Shown: one piece after another, positions 3,308-37,750 of the stretch
Layout: each line of letters begins with the position of its first letter
How positions within the stretch are numbered: position 1 is the first letter of the stretch
Sequence record: KX828711
Direction: 5' to 3' (one strand)
DNA: 64,000 nucleotides
From: Shigella phage SH7
Translations under genes and position numbers: made by a program
The notes under the pieces: generated by a model
The model's database searches: none
What the model was told of the DNA's origin: nothing
What the model saw: only the letters and a program-made list of their open reading frames with translations

Positions 3308-3590
3308 TCATATCCTCAATTTGCGATCTAGTAGTCTTCCAAAGAATACTGATGAGTTCATCGTTATATGGCTGTTTTAGAATATCCCGACTTTTCTTGA
3401 TAGCATATTCGTATTGAGCAAAATTATTATTTTCAGCTGCGATCTGAGCGTGCTTATAAAGACGATTCAGTTCGCGTTTGTTTTTAGACAATAACTTATT
3501 TGCTTTTCTTTCTGCTTCAAGACGGTTCTTTTCTTCAATAGAAGAAATAAGCTTTTCCACTTCATCATTAATTTCGGGTTTATCAGTCAT
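3273..3590 (-). CDS. hypothetical protein, predicted coiled coil
   Basis: 105 aa, charged helical sequence; tightly packed downstream of gene 55. Confidence 0.55.
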   Translation of the reverse strand: MTDKPEINDEVEKLISSIEEKNRLEAERKANKLLSKNKRELNRLYKHAQIAAENNNFAQYEYAIKKSRDILKQPYNDELISILWKTTRSQIEDMIDAYTRKIQAS

Positions 3591-3591
3591 A

Positions 3592-3810
3592 TTATTTCTC
3601 TAATATAAAATAAAAATCATCATCTGTTAAATGATACCGATAATTTAATTCTACACCATTAGATTTAAAAGCGGTATCATACGGATTTTCTGGATCAATA
3701 TCAATGTCAAGAGCTAAAACTTCCCTGAGATACATTTTAAGTAAATAGGGAATAGCTTCAACTTCAGGTATTTCTTCCAAGAATCCGGAGAGGTTAATCG
3801 TTAGCCTCAT
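3592..3810 (-). CDS. hypothetical small protein
   Basis: 72-aa ORF overlapping the gene 55 stop. Confidence 0.5.
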
Positions 3811-4351
3811 ATAAAAAATCCAAACTAGGAGAATCGTCTACAACACTTTTCTTTTCAGCCCCCGGTGTTCTATAGGTTGATTCTTCGTAATGCGTCATTT
3901 TATCGTAGATGTCTTGAATAAAAGTTTCATCTACTAACGCAACCATATCGTCGTCACGACTGTCATAGACATTGTGAACGAAGTAACTATATTTCTTTGC
4001 AACTTCCTTACGTTCTTTTTTAATACGTTGGACGAATGCATTAAAACAAGCTTGAGTTATATACGCATGTGGGTTTTTATATTTCGTTTCATCAAAATTA
4101 TGAAGCCCCTTAATAGAAGCTTCTATACCATCTGCAATCATTTCTTGTTTCCAAGACTGGGTGTATCCTGAAAAGTTGAAACGTTTAGATAAGCCTTCTG
4201 CAATAAGCATAATGGCTAATCCGATAGTATCATTTTGACGAACTACTTTATTTGGGTCTTTATTATTTGCTAATTCTGTTTTCCAATCAATAATAGCTTG
4301 TAAAAGCTCTTTATTGTTTACGTAATTATATTTAGGCTTAGTTTCTGACAT
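3794..4351 (-). CDS. 55: late-transcription sigma factor gp55
   Basis: 185 aa from [20 protein letters not shown] (third Met of the ORF); matches T4 gp55 in size and sequence as recalled. Confidence 0.9.
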
Positions 4352-29447: not shown

Positions 29448-29501
29448 GTGTTTCCTTTAAATATTTTAATTAGTAATTTATCTATTCAAGTAACTGTGAA
29501 T

Positions 29502-29531
29502 ATACTATCACAATTCCAAGAGAAAGTAAAC
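29502..29531 (-). promoter_or_regulatory. early-type promoter (GTTTAC..TAGTAT)
   Basis: Reverse complement GTTTAC..18 nt..TAGTAT upstream of the IP genes. Confidence 0.5.
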
Positions 29532-29535
29532 AGCT

Positions 29536-30504
<969 letters not shown>

Positions 30505-33614: not shown

Positions 33615-33878
33615 TTATTTCATATTATTGAAATATTCTTCTGCGATTTCGTCGTTATCATGGTAAACTTTAGAAGACAGTTTAACATAACCTTCAGCAG
33701 TGAACATGTTAATCACAACCTTTACAGTATACCACTGACCGTCTTCATTACCCATTACTGCGTAAGTTTCAAACATCGGATGATCAGGACCGATAACTTT
33801 AATATCATTCACTGTACGACCGAAATCTTCTGAAACGCATTTCATAAAGAAGTTGAACAGTTCGCCGTAATTATCCAT
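33615..33878 (-). CDS. hypothetical protein
   Basis: 87 aa from MDNYGELF (GGAG RBS); the upstream ORF extension is promoter sequence. Confidence 0.5.
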   Translation of the reverse strand: MDNYGELFNFFMKCVSEDFGRTVNDIKVIGPDHPMFETYAVMGNEDGQWYTVKVVINMFTAEGYVKLSSKVYHDNDEIAEEYFNNMK

Positions 33879-33921: not shown

Positions 33922-33951
33922 ATAGTACCATGGAAGAACAGGGATGTAAAC
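33922..33951 (-). promoter_or_regulatory. early-type promoter (GTTTAC..TACTAT)
   Basis: Shares the gatagttgtatagtacc core with the promoters at 16812 and 22085. Confidence 0.55.
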
Positions 33952-34074
33952 AGTTTTGTGAAAAAATTTTTAGGGAATTCTAGGGCGGAGAGGGGCAATT
34001 AAAAGGTAGGATAATATATTATAAAGGGTATAAACTAAATGATGCTTAGAGAGGCCCGGAAAGGCCTAGATACC

Positions 34075-34102
34075 AAAAAGCCCCAACCTTTCGGTCGGGG
34101 CT
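34075..34102 (-). terminator. rho-independent terminator with GAAA loop; copy 1 of a 33-nt direct repeat
   Basis: Minus strand AGCCCCGACCGAAAGGUUGGGGCUUUUU just after the 34110 stop. Confidence 0.7.
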
Positions 34103-34109
34103 AAGAATG

Positions 34110-34583
34110 TTATTTGATTTGTTTAGCAGACCAAATGCGGTCTTTAATAATTTTTTGGATGTCTTCAACATACTCAAGAGAGTGAGCATGTGGGTTATCT
34201 TTGAAACTATAAGCACGAGCTAGCTTTTGGCCTTCAGTTTTGATTACTAAAAGCTCTTTAAGGATAGCTTCATATTTGGAGATAATTCCTTTAACAATAT
34301 TTTTTTCTTGTGCAGCTTTAGGATCTGCTTTAGGAGCAGGTTTACCCGAAGCCTTTGCAAAAGCAGCGCCAGTAGCAACTAGACTTTTCCAGGCCATACT
34401 AACCGCATTTCCTGTAAATCCTTCTGCTTTCATGTCGCGAGCAAATTGGAATCGCGATTCGTCAGAAGCATCTTTATAGGAATATTTACCCGCGGCAATG
34501 GCAGCTTTTGCAACAGCTTGAATTTCAGTGCTAGATGCTTCATTTAACACCGCTTCATTTAAAAATTGAGCATATGATTTCAT
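34110..34583 (-). CDS. internal-protein-like protein with capsid-targeting sequence, outside the canonical ip loci
   Basis: 157 aa; N-terminal MKSYAQFLNEA matches the IP capsid-targeting consensus with an LxE cleavage site; Ala/Lys-rich body. Confidence 0.6.
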   Translation of the reverse strand: MKSYAQFLNEAVLNEASSTEIQAVAKAAIAAGKYSYKDASDESRFQFARDMKAEGFTGNAVSMAWKSLVATGAAFAKASGKPAPKADPKAAQEKNIVKGIISKYEAILKELLVIKTEGQKLARAYSFKDNPHAHSLEYVEDIQKIIKDRIWSAKQIK

Positions 34584-34628
34584 CTTATTTCCTGTTTTAA
34601 TTCGTGGTTTTAATATACTTATTTATAC

Positions 34629-34657
34629 TAAAAAGCCCCAACCTTTCGGCTGGGGCT
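34629..34657 (-). terminator. rho-independent terminator with GAAA loop; copy 2 of the 33-nt direct repeat
   Basis: Near-identical to 34075-34102 (3 mismatches); hairpin followed by UUUUU on the minus strand. Confidence 0.7.
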
Positions 34658-34708
34658 AAGCCTTGCGGCAACCTTGTCGGGGTTCCACCTGCTAAGGCAA
34701 GTGTTTGT

Positions 34709-34800
34709 ACGAAACGCCGGGATTCGAACCCGGTTACCAAGCAGTTGACGCTACTCAATATTTTTAAAAGGCCATATCTCGACCATATCCGAACGTTCCG
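34709..34800 (-). ncRNA. tRNA-like stable RNA candidate (acceptor stem plus T-arm, no anticodon arm, no CCA)
   Basis: Minus-strand CGGAACG pairs with CGUUUCG around a canonical T-arm CCGGG-UUCGAAU-CCCGG; lies in a 315-nt ORF-free interval. Confidence 0.35.
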
Positions 34801-34968
34801 TCAAAAACGCTACTCGGCTTACGGCAAAGATATTTCCTCGAATCGATAATTCGGTGCGCCGTTTCTGCTGTGATATAAGGGGACATTAACAGATCGTAAA
34901 GATTTGTTAATGCCAGTCCTTAAACAGGGAACATCAGTCCGACGACTTACCGGTAGCGACCCGGTTTC

Positions 34969-35319
34969 TTAATATTCTTTTAAAGCATCAATCTGTTCAC
35001 GACGTTTACGCCATAAATCAATTGCTTCATACGCAGATTCAGCATTTCGAATTGGACGGCATTTATATAAAGACTTGTGATTTTGATATTGCGTAGATAA
35101 CGGAATTTTATCTAAAAGGTCTTTACGTTCAAAGTATTCGTAACCATCTAAGCCAAATGAACGATTTTTGAGAAATTGCCAATGACCATATTCGTTTTCG
35201 ACATAAACATAATCCGCGTGTTGATAAAGCAAATTAATTACACGTTCAGAAATAATAGTGTCATTGTGATTAAAATAAAATGTTAAATCATGAACTACTA
35301 AATAAACATTACCTTTCAT
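34969..35319 (-). CDS. hypothetical protein downstream of tRNA-Arg
   Basis: 116-aa ORF beginning 17 nt after tRNA-Arg with a GAGGA RBS. Confidence 0.5.
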   Translation of the reverse strand: MKGNVYLVVHDLTFYFNHNDTIISERVINLLYQHADYVYVENEYGHWQFLKNRSFGLDGYEYFERKDLLDKIPLSTQYQNHKSLYKCRPIRNAESAYEAIDLWRKRREQIDALKEY

Positions 35320-35335: not shown

Positions 35336-35411
35336 TGGTCGAGGCAGTAGGGATCGAACCTACGACCTAGGACTTAGAAGGTCCTTGCTCTTCCTTCTGA
35401 GCTATGCCCCG
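35336..35411 (-). tRNA. tRNA-Arg (anticodon UCU)
   Basis: Hand-folded cloverleaf: 7-bp acceptor, anticodon loop CUUCUAA, T-loop TTCGATC, encoded CCA. Confidence 0.8.
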
Positions 35412-35415
35412 TAAT

Positions 35416-35491
35416 TGGGGTGACCGATGGGAGTCGAACCCATGACTACGAGAATCACAATCTCGAGTTCTACCAACTGAACTACGGCCAC
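35416..35491 (-). tRNA. tRNA-His (anticodon GUG), tentative
   Basis: Cloverleaf with anticodon loop UUGUGAU and discriminator C73, but no encoded G-1. Confidence 0.55.
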
Positions 35492-35605
35492 ATTAATACC
35501 TACTCCAACAATCAAGATGTCTTCACACGAAATTAAGAGAAGAGTGATCAGTTCAACCCCGATAATCGCGTCAAGTAGATATTAATGTGACAGTTGTCAC
35601 AAATT

Positions 35606-35680
35606 TGGCGGACGTGATAGGATTCGAACCTATAACCAATCGCTTAACAGGCGATCGCTCTGCCATTGAGCTACACATCC
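35606..35680 (-). tRNA. tRNA-Asn (anticodon GUU)
   Basis: Cloverleaf, anticodon loop CUGUUAA, T-loop TTCGAAT, discriminator G, CCA encoded. Confidence 0.65.
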
Positions 35681-35684
35681 AAAT

Positions 35685-35771
35685 TGGTGGGGAGTGATGG
35701 AGTCGAACCACCCGAGTCGCAATGACAATGGATTTACAGTCCACACCGCTACCTCTACGGGATAACTCCCC
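35685..35771 (-). tRNA. tRNA-Tyr (anticodon GUA), long variable arm
   Basis: 87 nt; perfect 7-bp acceptor, anticodon loop CUGUAAA, extra arm, discriminator A, CCA. Confidence 0.6.
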
Positions 35772-35784
35772 TTAATTCTTAATT

Positions 35785-35859
35785 TGGTGGCCCTAGGTGG
35801 AATTGAACCACCATCTGGCGATTATGAGTCGCTTGCTTGAACCTTCCAGCTACAGGGCC
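35785..35859 (-). tRNA. tRNA with CAU anticodon (Ile2-type or Met)
   Basis: Cloverleaf, anticodon loop CUCAUAA; occupies the position of T4 tRNA-Ile. Confidence 0.7.
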
Positions 35860-35860
35860 T

Positions 35861-35936
35861 TGGTGCTGATTGACGGAATCGAACCGCCGACCTTCTCATT
35901 ACAAGTGAGTTGCTCTACCTACTGAGCTAAATCAGC
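35861..35936 (-). tRNA. tRNA-Thr (anticodon UGU)
   Basis: Matches my recollection of T4 tRNA-Thr (GCTGATTTAGCTCAGTAGG...); anticodon loop CUUGUAA. Confidence 0.85.
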
Positions 35937-35941
35937 AAAAC

Positions 35942-36031
35942 TGGCGGAGGCAATAGGATTTGAACCTATGAGTCGCCGGAGCGACTGCCGGTTTTCAAGA
36001 CCGGTGCATTAAACCACTCTGCCACGCCTCC
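35942..36031 (-). tRNA. tRNA-Ser (anticodon UGA), long variable arm
   Basis: 90 nt; anticodon loop CUUGAAA, discriminator G, CCA encoded. Confidence 0.8.
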
Positions 36032-36033
36032 AG

Positions 36034-36107
36034 TCTCCATACAAGGATTTGAACCTTGGACCTCCTGATCCCAAATCAGGCGCTCTACCAAACTGAGCTA
36101 CACGGAG
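36034..36107 (-). tRNA. tRNA-Pro (anticodon UGG), CCA not encoded
   Basis: Anticodon loop UUUGGGA; 3 end abuts tRNA-Ser with a 2-nt spacer. Confidence 0.8.
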
Positions 36108-36117
36108 TAAATTAAAT

Positions 36118-36191
<74 letters not shown>

Positions 36192-36196
36192 AAATT

Positions 36197-36283
36197 TGGT
36201 GCGAGAAGTGGGACTCGAACCCACAAGGAAATCATTCCGCAGCATTTTAAGTGCTGTGCCTTTACCAATTTGACCATTCTCGC
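36197..36283 (-). tRNA. tRNA-Leu (anticodon UAA), long variable arm
   Basis: 87 nt; anticodon loop CUUAAAA; CCA encoded. Confidence 0.8.
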
Positions 36284-36284
36284 G

Positions 36285-36357
36285 CTGGGAATAAAGGACT
36301 CGAACCTTTGCATCCTGGAATCAAAATCCAGTGCCTTACCAACTTGGCTAATTCCCA
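36285..36357 (-). tRNA. tRNA-Gln (anticodon UUG), CCA not encoded
   Basis: Anticodon loop UUUUGAU; 1-nt spacer to tRNA-Leu. Confidence 0.8.
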
Positions 36358-36454: not shown

Positions 36455-36748
36455 TTACCATTTATGATAATACATATTTACGATGCATTCAAGACCCAAA
36501 GGATTTTTGAAAATATCATATTCAAGAGGACCTTTTTCTGTTTCGATAAAGAAATCAAAATTTACTGTATTAAATTTACGGTCTTCCTTCACTAATTTAA
36601 CTTGTGAAGATGAACGGTCAATGTAAACCTTTTCAACTTCAAAATATGTTAAAATGCCATAATCATCAATCAAGGCTTTAGCTGCTTCTTGATCATATTT
36701 ATATCCATTTTCAATGGATGATACTTTCGCATAAAGAATCATTATCAA
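36455..36748 (-). CDS. hypothetical protein
   Basis: 97-aa ORF. Confidence 0.5.
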   Translation of the reverse strand: MIMILYAKVSSIENGYKYDQEAAKALIDDYGILTYFEVEKVYIDRSSSQVKLVKEDRKFNTVNFDFFIETEKGPLEYDIFKNPLGLECIVNMYYHKW

Positions 36749-37164
36749 CCTTCATCAACAATAGTATGCGTATTGGCATTTACAATTTGCCACCAATCAA
36801 AGCGATTAGAACCATAATCTGGTTTGTTTTCATTTTCTTTGATAATGTCACGGAGTTCATCTTCGGTAGCGGCTTTCGCTATTAAATCAGCATATCCACC
36901 ACGAGGATAATAATTATCACCTGCAAAAAGTAAAAAGTTTGGTTTAATGTTATTGAACTCTTCAAGAGTAATAACTTTTCCTGACGGTTGAACAATCTCT
37001 ACATATTTATATCCCAATTTTTGAGCAGCATCTACTGCTTCAAGCAAAGTATCATGAGCCCATCCAATTTGACAACCTGGCTTTTCAGATGGATTAGCCT
37101 GATAATCCGCATACACTTTATACATTCTATTCACCTTTAGAAATTTTATCCATAACGATAGCAA
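36745..37164 (-). CDS. hypothetical protein
   Basis: 139-aa ORF; start may be the internal Met MYKVYADY. Confidence 0.5.
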   Translation of the reverse strand: MLSLWIKFLKVNRMYKVYADYQANPSEKPGCQIGWAHDTLLEAVDAAQKLGYKYVEIVQPSGKVITLEEFNNIKPNFLLFAGDNYYPRGGYADLIAKAATEDELRDIIKENENKPDYGSNRFDWWQIVNANTHTIVDEG

Positions 37165-37676: not shown

Positions 37677-37708
37677 TTTTTATTTTCCTAATTAATTTTG
37701 ATGAGATA

Positions 37709-37738
37709 ATAGTATCACTACCTCATCAGCATGTAAAC
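37709..37738 (-). promoter_or_regulatory. early-type promoter (GTTTAC..TACTAT) inside inverted repeat TGATGAG/CTCATCA
   Basis: Upstream of ipI; inverted repeat arms at 37699-37705 and 37722-37728. Confidence 0.55.
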
Positions 37739-37750
37739 AACTTTGTGAAA

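Follow-up and report, generated by a model that had tools for sequence, protein, structure and literature searches.

Between e.8 and rnaC of the window (the whole 64,000-nt stretch of Shigella phage SH7 DNA analysed here, record KX828711) lies a 157-codon gene that is best explained, at a probability of about two in three, as a late cassette for an internal protein (IP) with a capsid-targeting sequence (CTS), a cassette that is gained and lost at terminator repeats and whose product may act against host defence. Its product is very probably packaged in phage heads and enters the host together with the DNA. The gene is found in some T-even phages and is absent from others, with a pair of near-identical terminator hairpins marking exactly the limits of the segment that comes and goes. 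From these features we infer packaging, processing and an anti-defence role for what would be a new family of CTS-bearing internal proteins, occupying a third, unannotated IP slot. In the records examined the slot carries no ip annotation, and the ORF, in contrast to the IPs, bears no Ip name and is known here from its sequence; an earlier mention in the literature is possible.

The 157-codon gene and its transcription unit

The region of the window that contains the gene matches several hundred Tequatrovirus genomes at 95-97% identity and has the gene order of T4. From left to right, and all on the minus strand, it comprises an ORF in the position of PST IpIV, an ipII-like gene, e, nudE and e.2 to e.8, and, past e.8, rnaC, rnaD, the tRNA cluster, trna.2-4, ipI and 57B. 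The 157-codon ORF has e.8 (33615-33878) and rnaC (34708-34846) as its neighbours, and its stop codon is separated from the downstream repeat by 4 nt. An initial reading of the letters by themselves, which we call the sequence-only reading, had placed the gene away from the canonical ip loci, between nudE and the tRNA genes, and the e.8/rnaC interval agrees with this. The features of the locus are collected in Table 1.

Table 1. Features of the cassette and of the flanks of its slot, in the order in which they are read on the minus strand
Feature	Positions	Strand	Remarks
Conserved trailer	34663..34707	(-)	45 nt, from rnaC to the upstream terminator; right flank of the slot
Upstream 36-nt repeat	34625..34660	(-)	Intrinsic terminator after rnaC and trailer; stem-loop 34634-34657
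Late promoter TATAAATA	34620..34627	(-)	36 nt upstream of the ATG
Shine-Dalgarno AGGA	34590..34593	(-)	6 nt 5' of the ATG, read from the sequence
157-aa ORF, phrog_2280	34110..34583	(-)	Start MKSYAQFLNEAVLNEA
Putative CTS MKSYAQFLNE	34554..34583	(-)	Codons 1-10; ends in an L-x-E prohead-protease site
Downstream 36-nt repeat	34070..34105	(-)	Cassette terminator; stem-loop 34079-34102
Early-type promoter (G)TTTACA-17-TACTAT of e.8	33922..33950	(-)	Left flank of the slot; also at the empty T4 site

The two repeats are in direct orientation and are identical at 33 of 36 nt (92%). Read on the minus strand, both copies have the sequence AGCCCC(GA/AG)CC-GAAA-GGTTGGGGCT and then U5, and the two hairpins fold with -20.3 and -20.6 kcal/mol, at a z-score of roughly -4, a stability equalled by 0 of 200 shuffles. 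The stem differences, GA in one copy and AG in the other, lie opposite UU, where G·U and A-U are swapped, and 10 of 10 pairs are retained. Both copies thus have the 10-bp stems, GAAA loops, U5 tails and positions at the ends of transcription units that characterise intrinsic terminators; the unit closed by the upstream copy is that of the tRNAs, rnaD and rnaC. Identity reaches past the stem-loop, into CUUA upstream and UUUUU(A/G)GUAU downstream. The sequence-only reading had described the pair as minus-strand GAAA-loop terminators of 33 nt; the terminators stand, but the length has to be corrected to 36 nt. A chance match between the copies was ruled out, as 0 of 100 shuffles contained any match; a search of the 64-kb window at up to 3 mismatches returned these 2 copies and no further one elsewhere.

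The promoter sequence TATAAATA comes directly after the U-run of the upstream copy and overlaps the end of the repeat (GCUUUUUAG-TATAAATA). It occurs 15 times in the window against 10.5 expected in DNA so rich in AT, and a single occurrence is not significant; it carries weight because its position is conserved, not because it is rare. Exact copies are found 0-7 nt past the terminator tail in Kha5h, ime09, fD1, HP3, FL18, KpV477 and vB_Cdu_VP8, and Shf125875 has a 7/8 match at the same position. The layout of terminator plus TATAAATA is present in Tequatrovirus, Mosigvirus (FL18), Jiaodavirus (KpV477) and Cronobacter phage VP8, and in these relatives the units are always located just downstream of tRNA genes, next to rnaC in those genomes that have this RNA. 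Reading further downstream, an early-type promoter, GTTTAC-17-TACTAT, then follows in the window, at T4-type sites and in Shf125875, FL18, KpV477 and VP8. Whereas ipI and the ipII-like gene of the window have early-type promoters immediately upstream, the 157-codon gene has a late promoter of its own joined to a terminator; this difference in layout counts against the favoured explanation. Late synthesis of the protein is predicted from this promoter, and the cassette appears to form a self-contained late transcription unit between the terminator and the early promoter. That it was self-contained had been proposed from the outset, and late promoter, Shine-Dalgarno sequence, ORF and terminator are indeed all present.

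The whole length of the 157-aa protein aligns with phrog_2280 ("unknown function"), and the same holds for two relatives of different size. One, of 187 aa, starts with MKTYAEFLTE followed by AAK and is found in ime09, IME340 and HP3, and in a frameshifted form in RB69; the other, of 208 aa, starts with MYTFNEFLAE followed by TEVITE and A, and is found in FL18. The family is thus divided into at least three types, of 157, 187 and 208 aa, that have diverged from one another and occupy one slot across Tevenvirinae genera. In tblastn searches the three types were found in 510, 165 and 144 phage records respectively, and among the matches listed all three are labelled hypothetical. With 510 conserved homologues and detection by mass spectrometry (below), a spurious ORF is ruled out.

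When 1.84 billion representative proteins were searched with a profile HMM, 14 hits were obtained in total and no distant relationship to any known family emerged; the hits that were inspected are small proteins that have the same motif at the N-terminus and are encoded in T4-like phage genomes or on short metagenome contigs. The Pfam search of the 157-aa protein returned no domain, only sub-threshold noise, and comparison of the profile with PDB sequences gave one spurious designer-PPR match and no passing domain. Foldseek searches of PDB and BFVD retrieved members of the family itself and nothing else. The AlphaFold model (mean pLDDT 75) is all-helical and elongated: a small N-domain of helices (residues ~18-71) is connected by a Pro/Ala/Lys linker to a long helical hairpin at the C-terminus. 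The mature product is predicted to have 142-147 aa and a mass of 15.5-16 kDa, and to be lysine-rich with a pI of 9.5, like the IPs of the window.

Putative targeting sequence, proposed packaging and role

In T4 the prohead protease gp21 cleaves after L/I-x-E, and in the IPIII CTS (MKTYQEFIAE) the mutants of Mullaney & Black assign residues 4 and 7 mainly to targeting and residues 8 and 10 to processing, as summarised in PMC9026906. The 157-aa protein conforms at all four of these experimentally critical positions (Y4, F7, L8 and E10), in line with the suggestion of the sequence-only reading that its N-terminus is CTS-like; positions 5-6 are AQ, compared with QE in IPIII. A second LNE is formed by residues 13-15, ending at 34539. 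The residues after E10 begin at A11 (AVLNEASSTEIQAVAK) and those after E15 at A16 (ASSTEIQAVAK).

A strict form of the motif, MK[ST][YF]x[EQ]F[ILVT]xE, has 3 occurrences when the window is translated in all six frames, and all are at ORF starts: at 34110-34583, at the ipII-like gene (29447) and at a second 157-aa ORF (29113), whose positional counterpart in PST is annotated IpIV. The gene ipI (37676) matches a looser form. An N-terminal pattern common to the IP genes, as had been claimed, is thus found at three loci in the strict form and at ipI in the looser one. Homologues down to ~35% identity keep an aromatic residue at position 4 together with F-L-x-E, with N-termini such as MLEYSEFLKE, MKFKEFLAE, MLKFNEFLAE, MINFSDFLNE and MKSFSSFLNE. 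Since the motif is kept in homologues of 35-40% identity and in three paralogous types, the N-terminus itself is probably under selection.

Judged by sequence, the ORF has every feature by which CTS-bearing internal proteins of T4 are recognised. Like the T4 IPs the protein is small and basic, with an N-terminal CTS of ~10 residues ending in L/I-x-E, and like theirs its gene is non-essential and polymorphic and lies on the same strand within a hyperplastic region; it is dispensable in that T4, T2, T6 and PST do not have it. The mature parts of different IPs are mutually dissimilar, and the same is true of the 157-aa protein. It differs from the IPs of the window in its assignment (phrog_2280, against phrog_3155, 3966 and 4363) and in its location downstream of the tRNA/rnaC genes, as opposed to the ipI and ipII/III loci.

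In the explanation that we favour, the gene would be transcribed late from TATAAATA, and MKSYAQFLNE would act as a CTS that takes the protein into the prohead scaffolding core. There gp21 would cut after LNE, at E10 and/or E15, and the basic mature protein of ~15.5-16 kDa would stay in the head and be ejected with the DNA. This proposed behaviour is that of T4 IPI, IPII and IPIII, each of which blocks a distinct GmrSD-type Type IV restriction enzyme (PMC12373910, PMC9391042). Bas37_0260, a protein recognised only by its CTS, blocks McrBC (10.1101/2025.11.20.689424). All four CTS-bearing internal proteins with targets identified in the literature consulted (IPI, IPII, IPIII and Bas37_0260) therefore inhibit Type IV restriction, and on this precedent an anti-defence role is the most likely one for the 157-aa protein; by analogy, and within the best explanation, we would give about even odds that it neutralises host defence at DNA entry. 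No homology to a characterised restriction inhibitor was found by PHROG comparison with the IPs of the window or by sequence and fold comparison with PDB. As the known inhibitors are mutually unrelated, this is no argument against inhibition. Bas37_0260 is the nearest parallel in kind, being likewise a protein of a T4 relative that is recognised by its N-terminal packaging signal, is unrelated to IPI-III and is absent from T4. It differs in having a demonstrated phenotype and target (HIDEN-SEQ preprint, 10.1101/2025.11.20.689424) and in its place at the classical ipI locus, whereas the 157-codon ORF lies at another locus and is a candidate.

Alternatively, the protein might be packaged through its CTS and yet have a structural or physical role in the head, as an accessory of the scaffolding core, in charge neutralisation or condensation of the DNA, or in ejection. 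The lysine-rich mature protein, with its pI of 9.5, would suit such a role, as internal-protein lysines contact DNA phosphates in T4 heads (PMC3012670), and the elongated helical shape of the model, with its linker and hairpin, is predicted to be nearer to that of core or scaffold proteins than to that of a compact inhibitor. Sequence conservation within Tequatrovirus is also high: the 157-codon gene is 95-100% identical in ~365 records, and is not hypervariable as a locus in a rapid arms race would be, which counts against the best explanation as well as in favour of a structural role. However, T2, T4, T6 and PST do without the gene, so that it is unnecessary for head assembly, and those CTS-bearing proteins for which the literature consulted identifies a target are restriction inhibitors without exception. 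Moreover, the three types of the family replace one another or are stacked at a single site, which is typical of host-range accessory genes. We consider a purely structural role unlikely.

Virion proteomics is available for a close homologue. Yersinia phage fD1 g140 encodes a protein of 157 aa that is 99% identical to the window ORF, with two substitutions, and Gp140 was marked "PPAP" by virion LC-MS/MS (Table S3, PMC8309999), the stricter category, defined by at least 2 peptides and a mean spectral count of at least 2. The fD1 preparation had only been pelleted by ultracentrifugation and contained 113-137 of the 277 phage proteins, DenV, lysozyme and NudE among them, together with 672 host proteins (PMC8309999). 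No product of the neighbouring genes e.8 (g139) and g138 was detected in that dataset. The listing proves that Gp140 is expressed and co-sediments with particles, and does not prove that it is packaged. Mass spectrometry of virions had been put forward as a check on packaging; on that score the homologue is particle-associated, but in a dataset whose specificity is low. Separately, a major virion band of HY01 is reported as an unnamed "hypothetical" protein.

The composition of the fD1 particles bears on a further alternative, in which the gene product is a late protein that is not packaged, its resemblance to a CTS being ip-ancestral or fortuitous and now non-functional, and its detection in fD1 being due to contamination. 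The abundance of non-structural proteins in the particle proteome is in keeping with this, and so is AQ in place of QE at positions 5-6. Against it, the motif has been kept across homologues of 35-40% identity and three paralogous types, the four positions that matter in the IPIII work all conform, and e.8 and g138 escaped detection in the very dataset in which Gp140 was found. We regard this alternative as quite unlikely, and retain packaging through the CTS as the preferred reading.

Four states of one slot and the proposed role of the repeats

The site between rnaC and e.8 was compared among relatives. In T4, T2, T6 and PST it is empty, and consists exactly of the right flank, one repeat and the left flank; the single hairpin of T4 is identical to the left copy of the window. 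The window, Kha5h and fD1 have the 157-aa cassette only, and the 157-codon gene is also carried by RB32, RB68 and Bas42. IME340 has the 187-aa cassette only; the junction is again at this hairpin, and another terminator closes the cassette. The relatives ime09, HP3 and two IMG/VR contigs (L006 and L007) have both cassettes in tandem. All four states of the slot (none, 157 only, 187 only and both) thus exist among relatives. In a further contig (L004) the same hairpin and TATAAATA precede the gene of a membrane protein that lacks a CTS; the slot can thus hold other kinds of protein, which counts against the favoured explanation.

Exact-pattern scanning of IMG/VR for the rnaC trailer gave only 6 loci, and for this reason a census was drawn from megablast matches, as a spread sample of 60 of the 682 matching records; HP3 and EC.W14-2 were resolved separately. 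The 157-aa cassette was present alone in 21 of the 60 and together with the 187-aa cassette in 13, while one record had the cassette cut by the record end and five had a Mosigvirus-type allele of 77% nt identity; the 157-aa cassette or its Mosigvirus allele is therefore carried by 40 of the 60 sampled records. The 187-aa cassette was alone in three records and the site was empty in seven. Nine records had homology only from the right hairpin onwards, and one was a fragment. In the megablast alignments homology breaks off at query positions 186-196 and 737, which coincide with the two hairpins.

Presence/absence variation bounded by the repeats, which the sequence-only reading had suggested looking for across T-even genomes, is thus found, with breakpoints exactly at the repeat and a single hairpin in T4, T2, T6 and PST. 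Its description of the cassette as mobile holds for gain and loss at one fixed slot but not for other loci: movement between loci was considered and rejected, as each genome examined has one copy of each type and it is always in the same slot. The repeat copies also co-vary within genomes, both stems having CCCCTTCC in Mosigvirus Shf125875 and GACC/AGCC in Tequatrovirus; in HP3 and L006 the two copies do not differ.

T4-type phages recombine freely through flanking homology. This, and the presence of just two copies in the window with no dispersed repeat family of the PeSL (promoter-early stem-loop) kind, might suggest that the hairpins are independent look-alike terminators and that the polymorphism comes from ordinary exchange of flanks, the repeats having no role, but such a view is very improbable given the identity beyond the stem-loop (36 nt in all), the exact structure of the empty sites, the joining of the ORF187 cassette at the hairpin (IME340 and ime09), the breakpoints at the hairpins in other lineages, and the co-variation of the copies, with CCCCTTCC in Mosigvirus and identical pairs in HP3 and L006.

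With the repeats taken as the points of gain and loss, the distribution of the family suggests how the present states arose. Since family members are found at this site in Mosigvirus and Jiaodavirus as well as in a Cronobacter phage, the simplest history would be that the family was present ancestrally and was lost in the T2, T4 and T6 lineages by recombination between the direct repeats. Re-acquisition during co-infection, through the repeats or the flanks, is equally possible. Deletions between short direct repeats in T4 are known from the classical rII deletion studies. Similarly, the 36-nt repeats here are 555 bp apart and the empty alleles keep one copy; the classical rII repeats are chance repeats, whereas those of the 157-aa cassette function as terminators and are conserved, with co-variation, across genera.

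A second parallel is provided by PeSL and PmSL (promoter-middle stem-loop) elements, for which a recombination (mini-circle) model exists (Arbiol 2010, PMC2839356; Comeau 2014, PMC4122927). As with PeSLs, a composite of stem-loop terminator and promoter flanks small accessory ORFs, and an ORF with two elements, in the window, corresponds to a single element in close relatives, namely T4, T2, T6 and PST. The PeSL early promoter, TTTACW-N17-TAYWAT right after the stem-loop, is not seen here; the upstream copy has the late promoter TATAAATA instead. The downstream copy is also unlike a PeSL, with the early promoter ~130 nt away and no second late promoter. PeSLs occur as many dispersed copies, whereas here there are two copies at one locus. 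Late promoters are not mentioned in either of the two PeSL papers (PMC2839356, PMC4122927). Gain and loss of the cassette by repeat recombination fits the logic of PeSLs, as a late-promoter variant. A bolder proposal is that the slot is a third, ancestral Tevenvirinae IP locus, lost by T2, T4 and T6 alike, that its products would be injected and inhibit a defence other than the GmrSD and McrBC variants assigned to IPI-III and Bas37_0260, and that the hairpin, with its fused late promoter, would serve as a "late" PeSL-like module for swapping alternative injected proteins; this we put forward tentatively, as possible but doubtful.

Implications for T-even phages

The site is empty in T2, T4 and T6, and for this reason the family never received a name. 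PST, the source of the names IpIV-IpVI, has an empty site too. The lack of the gene in T2, T4 and T6 makes these phages natural negative controls and gain-of-function recipients. The four-state slot, bounded by terminator repeats, offers a compact natural case in which repeat-mediated gain and loss of a cassette could be measured. For the annotation of injected proteins in other genomes we suggest as a rule the combination of a terminator, TATAAATA and M-x-x-[YF]-x-x-F-L-x-E. In view of the results obtained in 2022-2025 with IPI, IPII, IPIII and Bas37_0260, each new CTS-bearing family, this one included, is a candidate for an unknown phage-host interaction.

Promoters of the internal head protein genes and of the 157-aa ORF

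The 157-aa ORF differs from two genes for T4-type internal head proteins (IPs) in the window in how it is likely to be transcribed. The ipII-like gene and ipI are each preceded by an early-type promoter, whereas a dedicated late promoter is predicted for the 157-aa ORF. Beside the left terminator lies another short inverted repeat, of sequence AGGCC-(6 nt)-GGCCT, that is also found in fD1 and is degenerate in T4, T2 and T6. In phage HY01 virions, one of the five major bands on SDS-PAGE was described only as 'a hypothetical protein' (PMC5201272), and this band could correspond to an IP-like protein.

Features of the window and of related loci
Feature	Sequence	Position	Strand	Remark
Early-type promoter, ipII-like gene	window	29448-29560	(-)	GTTTAC-17-TAGTAT/TACTAT; directly upstream of gene
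Early-type promoter, ipI	window	37677-37750	(-)	GTTTAC-17-TAGTAT/TACTAT; directly upstream of gene
Second small inverted repeat	window	34046-34061		adjoins left terminator tail, downstream on minus strand
116-aa ORF	window	34969-35319	(-)	phrog_3355 ('unknown function'); 'RB69ORF150c'; between rnaD and tRNA-Arg
tRNA cluster	window	35336-36357	(-)	11 genes, including His, Asn, Tyr, Met; segB absent
P0028 counterparts	window	36745-37164 and 34110-34210
Variant slot layout	L004 (IMG/VR UViG_2706795408)	3523-4223
Tandem CTS-type ORFs	L017 (Cronobacter phage vB_Cdu_VP8)	2786-3510		two ORFs
KpV477 family member	L013	3000-3530		in-frame TAA in deposited sequence
RB69 family member	L022	7429-7991		ORF148c and ORF149c each cover one half of a 187-aa homologue split by a frameshift

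Variant and apparently disrupted occupants of the slot

The IMG/VR contig lacks rnaC; the interval separating rnaD from the conserved 45-nt trailer holds a late promoter and a 127-aa ORF. This ORF begins MLTYAEFLNRNTITE, possibly an ipI-like long capsid-targeting sequence (CTS). The next hairpin, together with TATAAATA (a predicted late promoter), precedes a 184-aa membrane-protein ORF with no CTS. In VP8 a single terminator/late promoter lies ahead of both CTS-type ORFs, of 72 aa (MKSFTEFLTE..) and 169 aa (MKSFSSFLNE..), whose stop and start codons overlap as ATGA. Going by the deposited sequences, the family members of KpV477 and RB69 look inactivated; an intact form of the former is present in phage KP01.

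Polymorphism of the stable-RNA region

The tRNA cluster of the window lacks segB and is larger than that of T4, which has 8 tRNAs, including Ile, as well as segB. Locus comparison identified the 116-aa ORF as a second indel-polymorphic ORF, lying within the stable-RNA region: it is also carried by T2, ime09 and RB69, and in T4, T6 and PST rnaD directly adjoins tRNA-Arg.

A 2.9-kb Logan contig encodes a 94-aa protein (P0028) in which the N-terminal part of a trna.3-like protein continues, with the reading frame kept, into the final ~34 residues encoded by the 157-aa ORF. Such a fusion implies that some phage has undergone a deletion of ~2.6 kb, with the loss of all tRNA genes, rnaC and rnaD.
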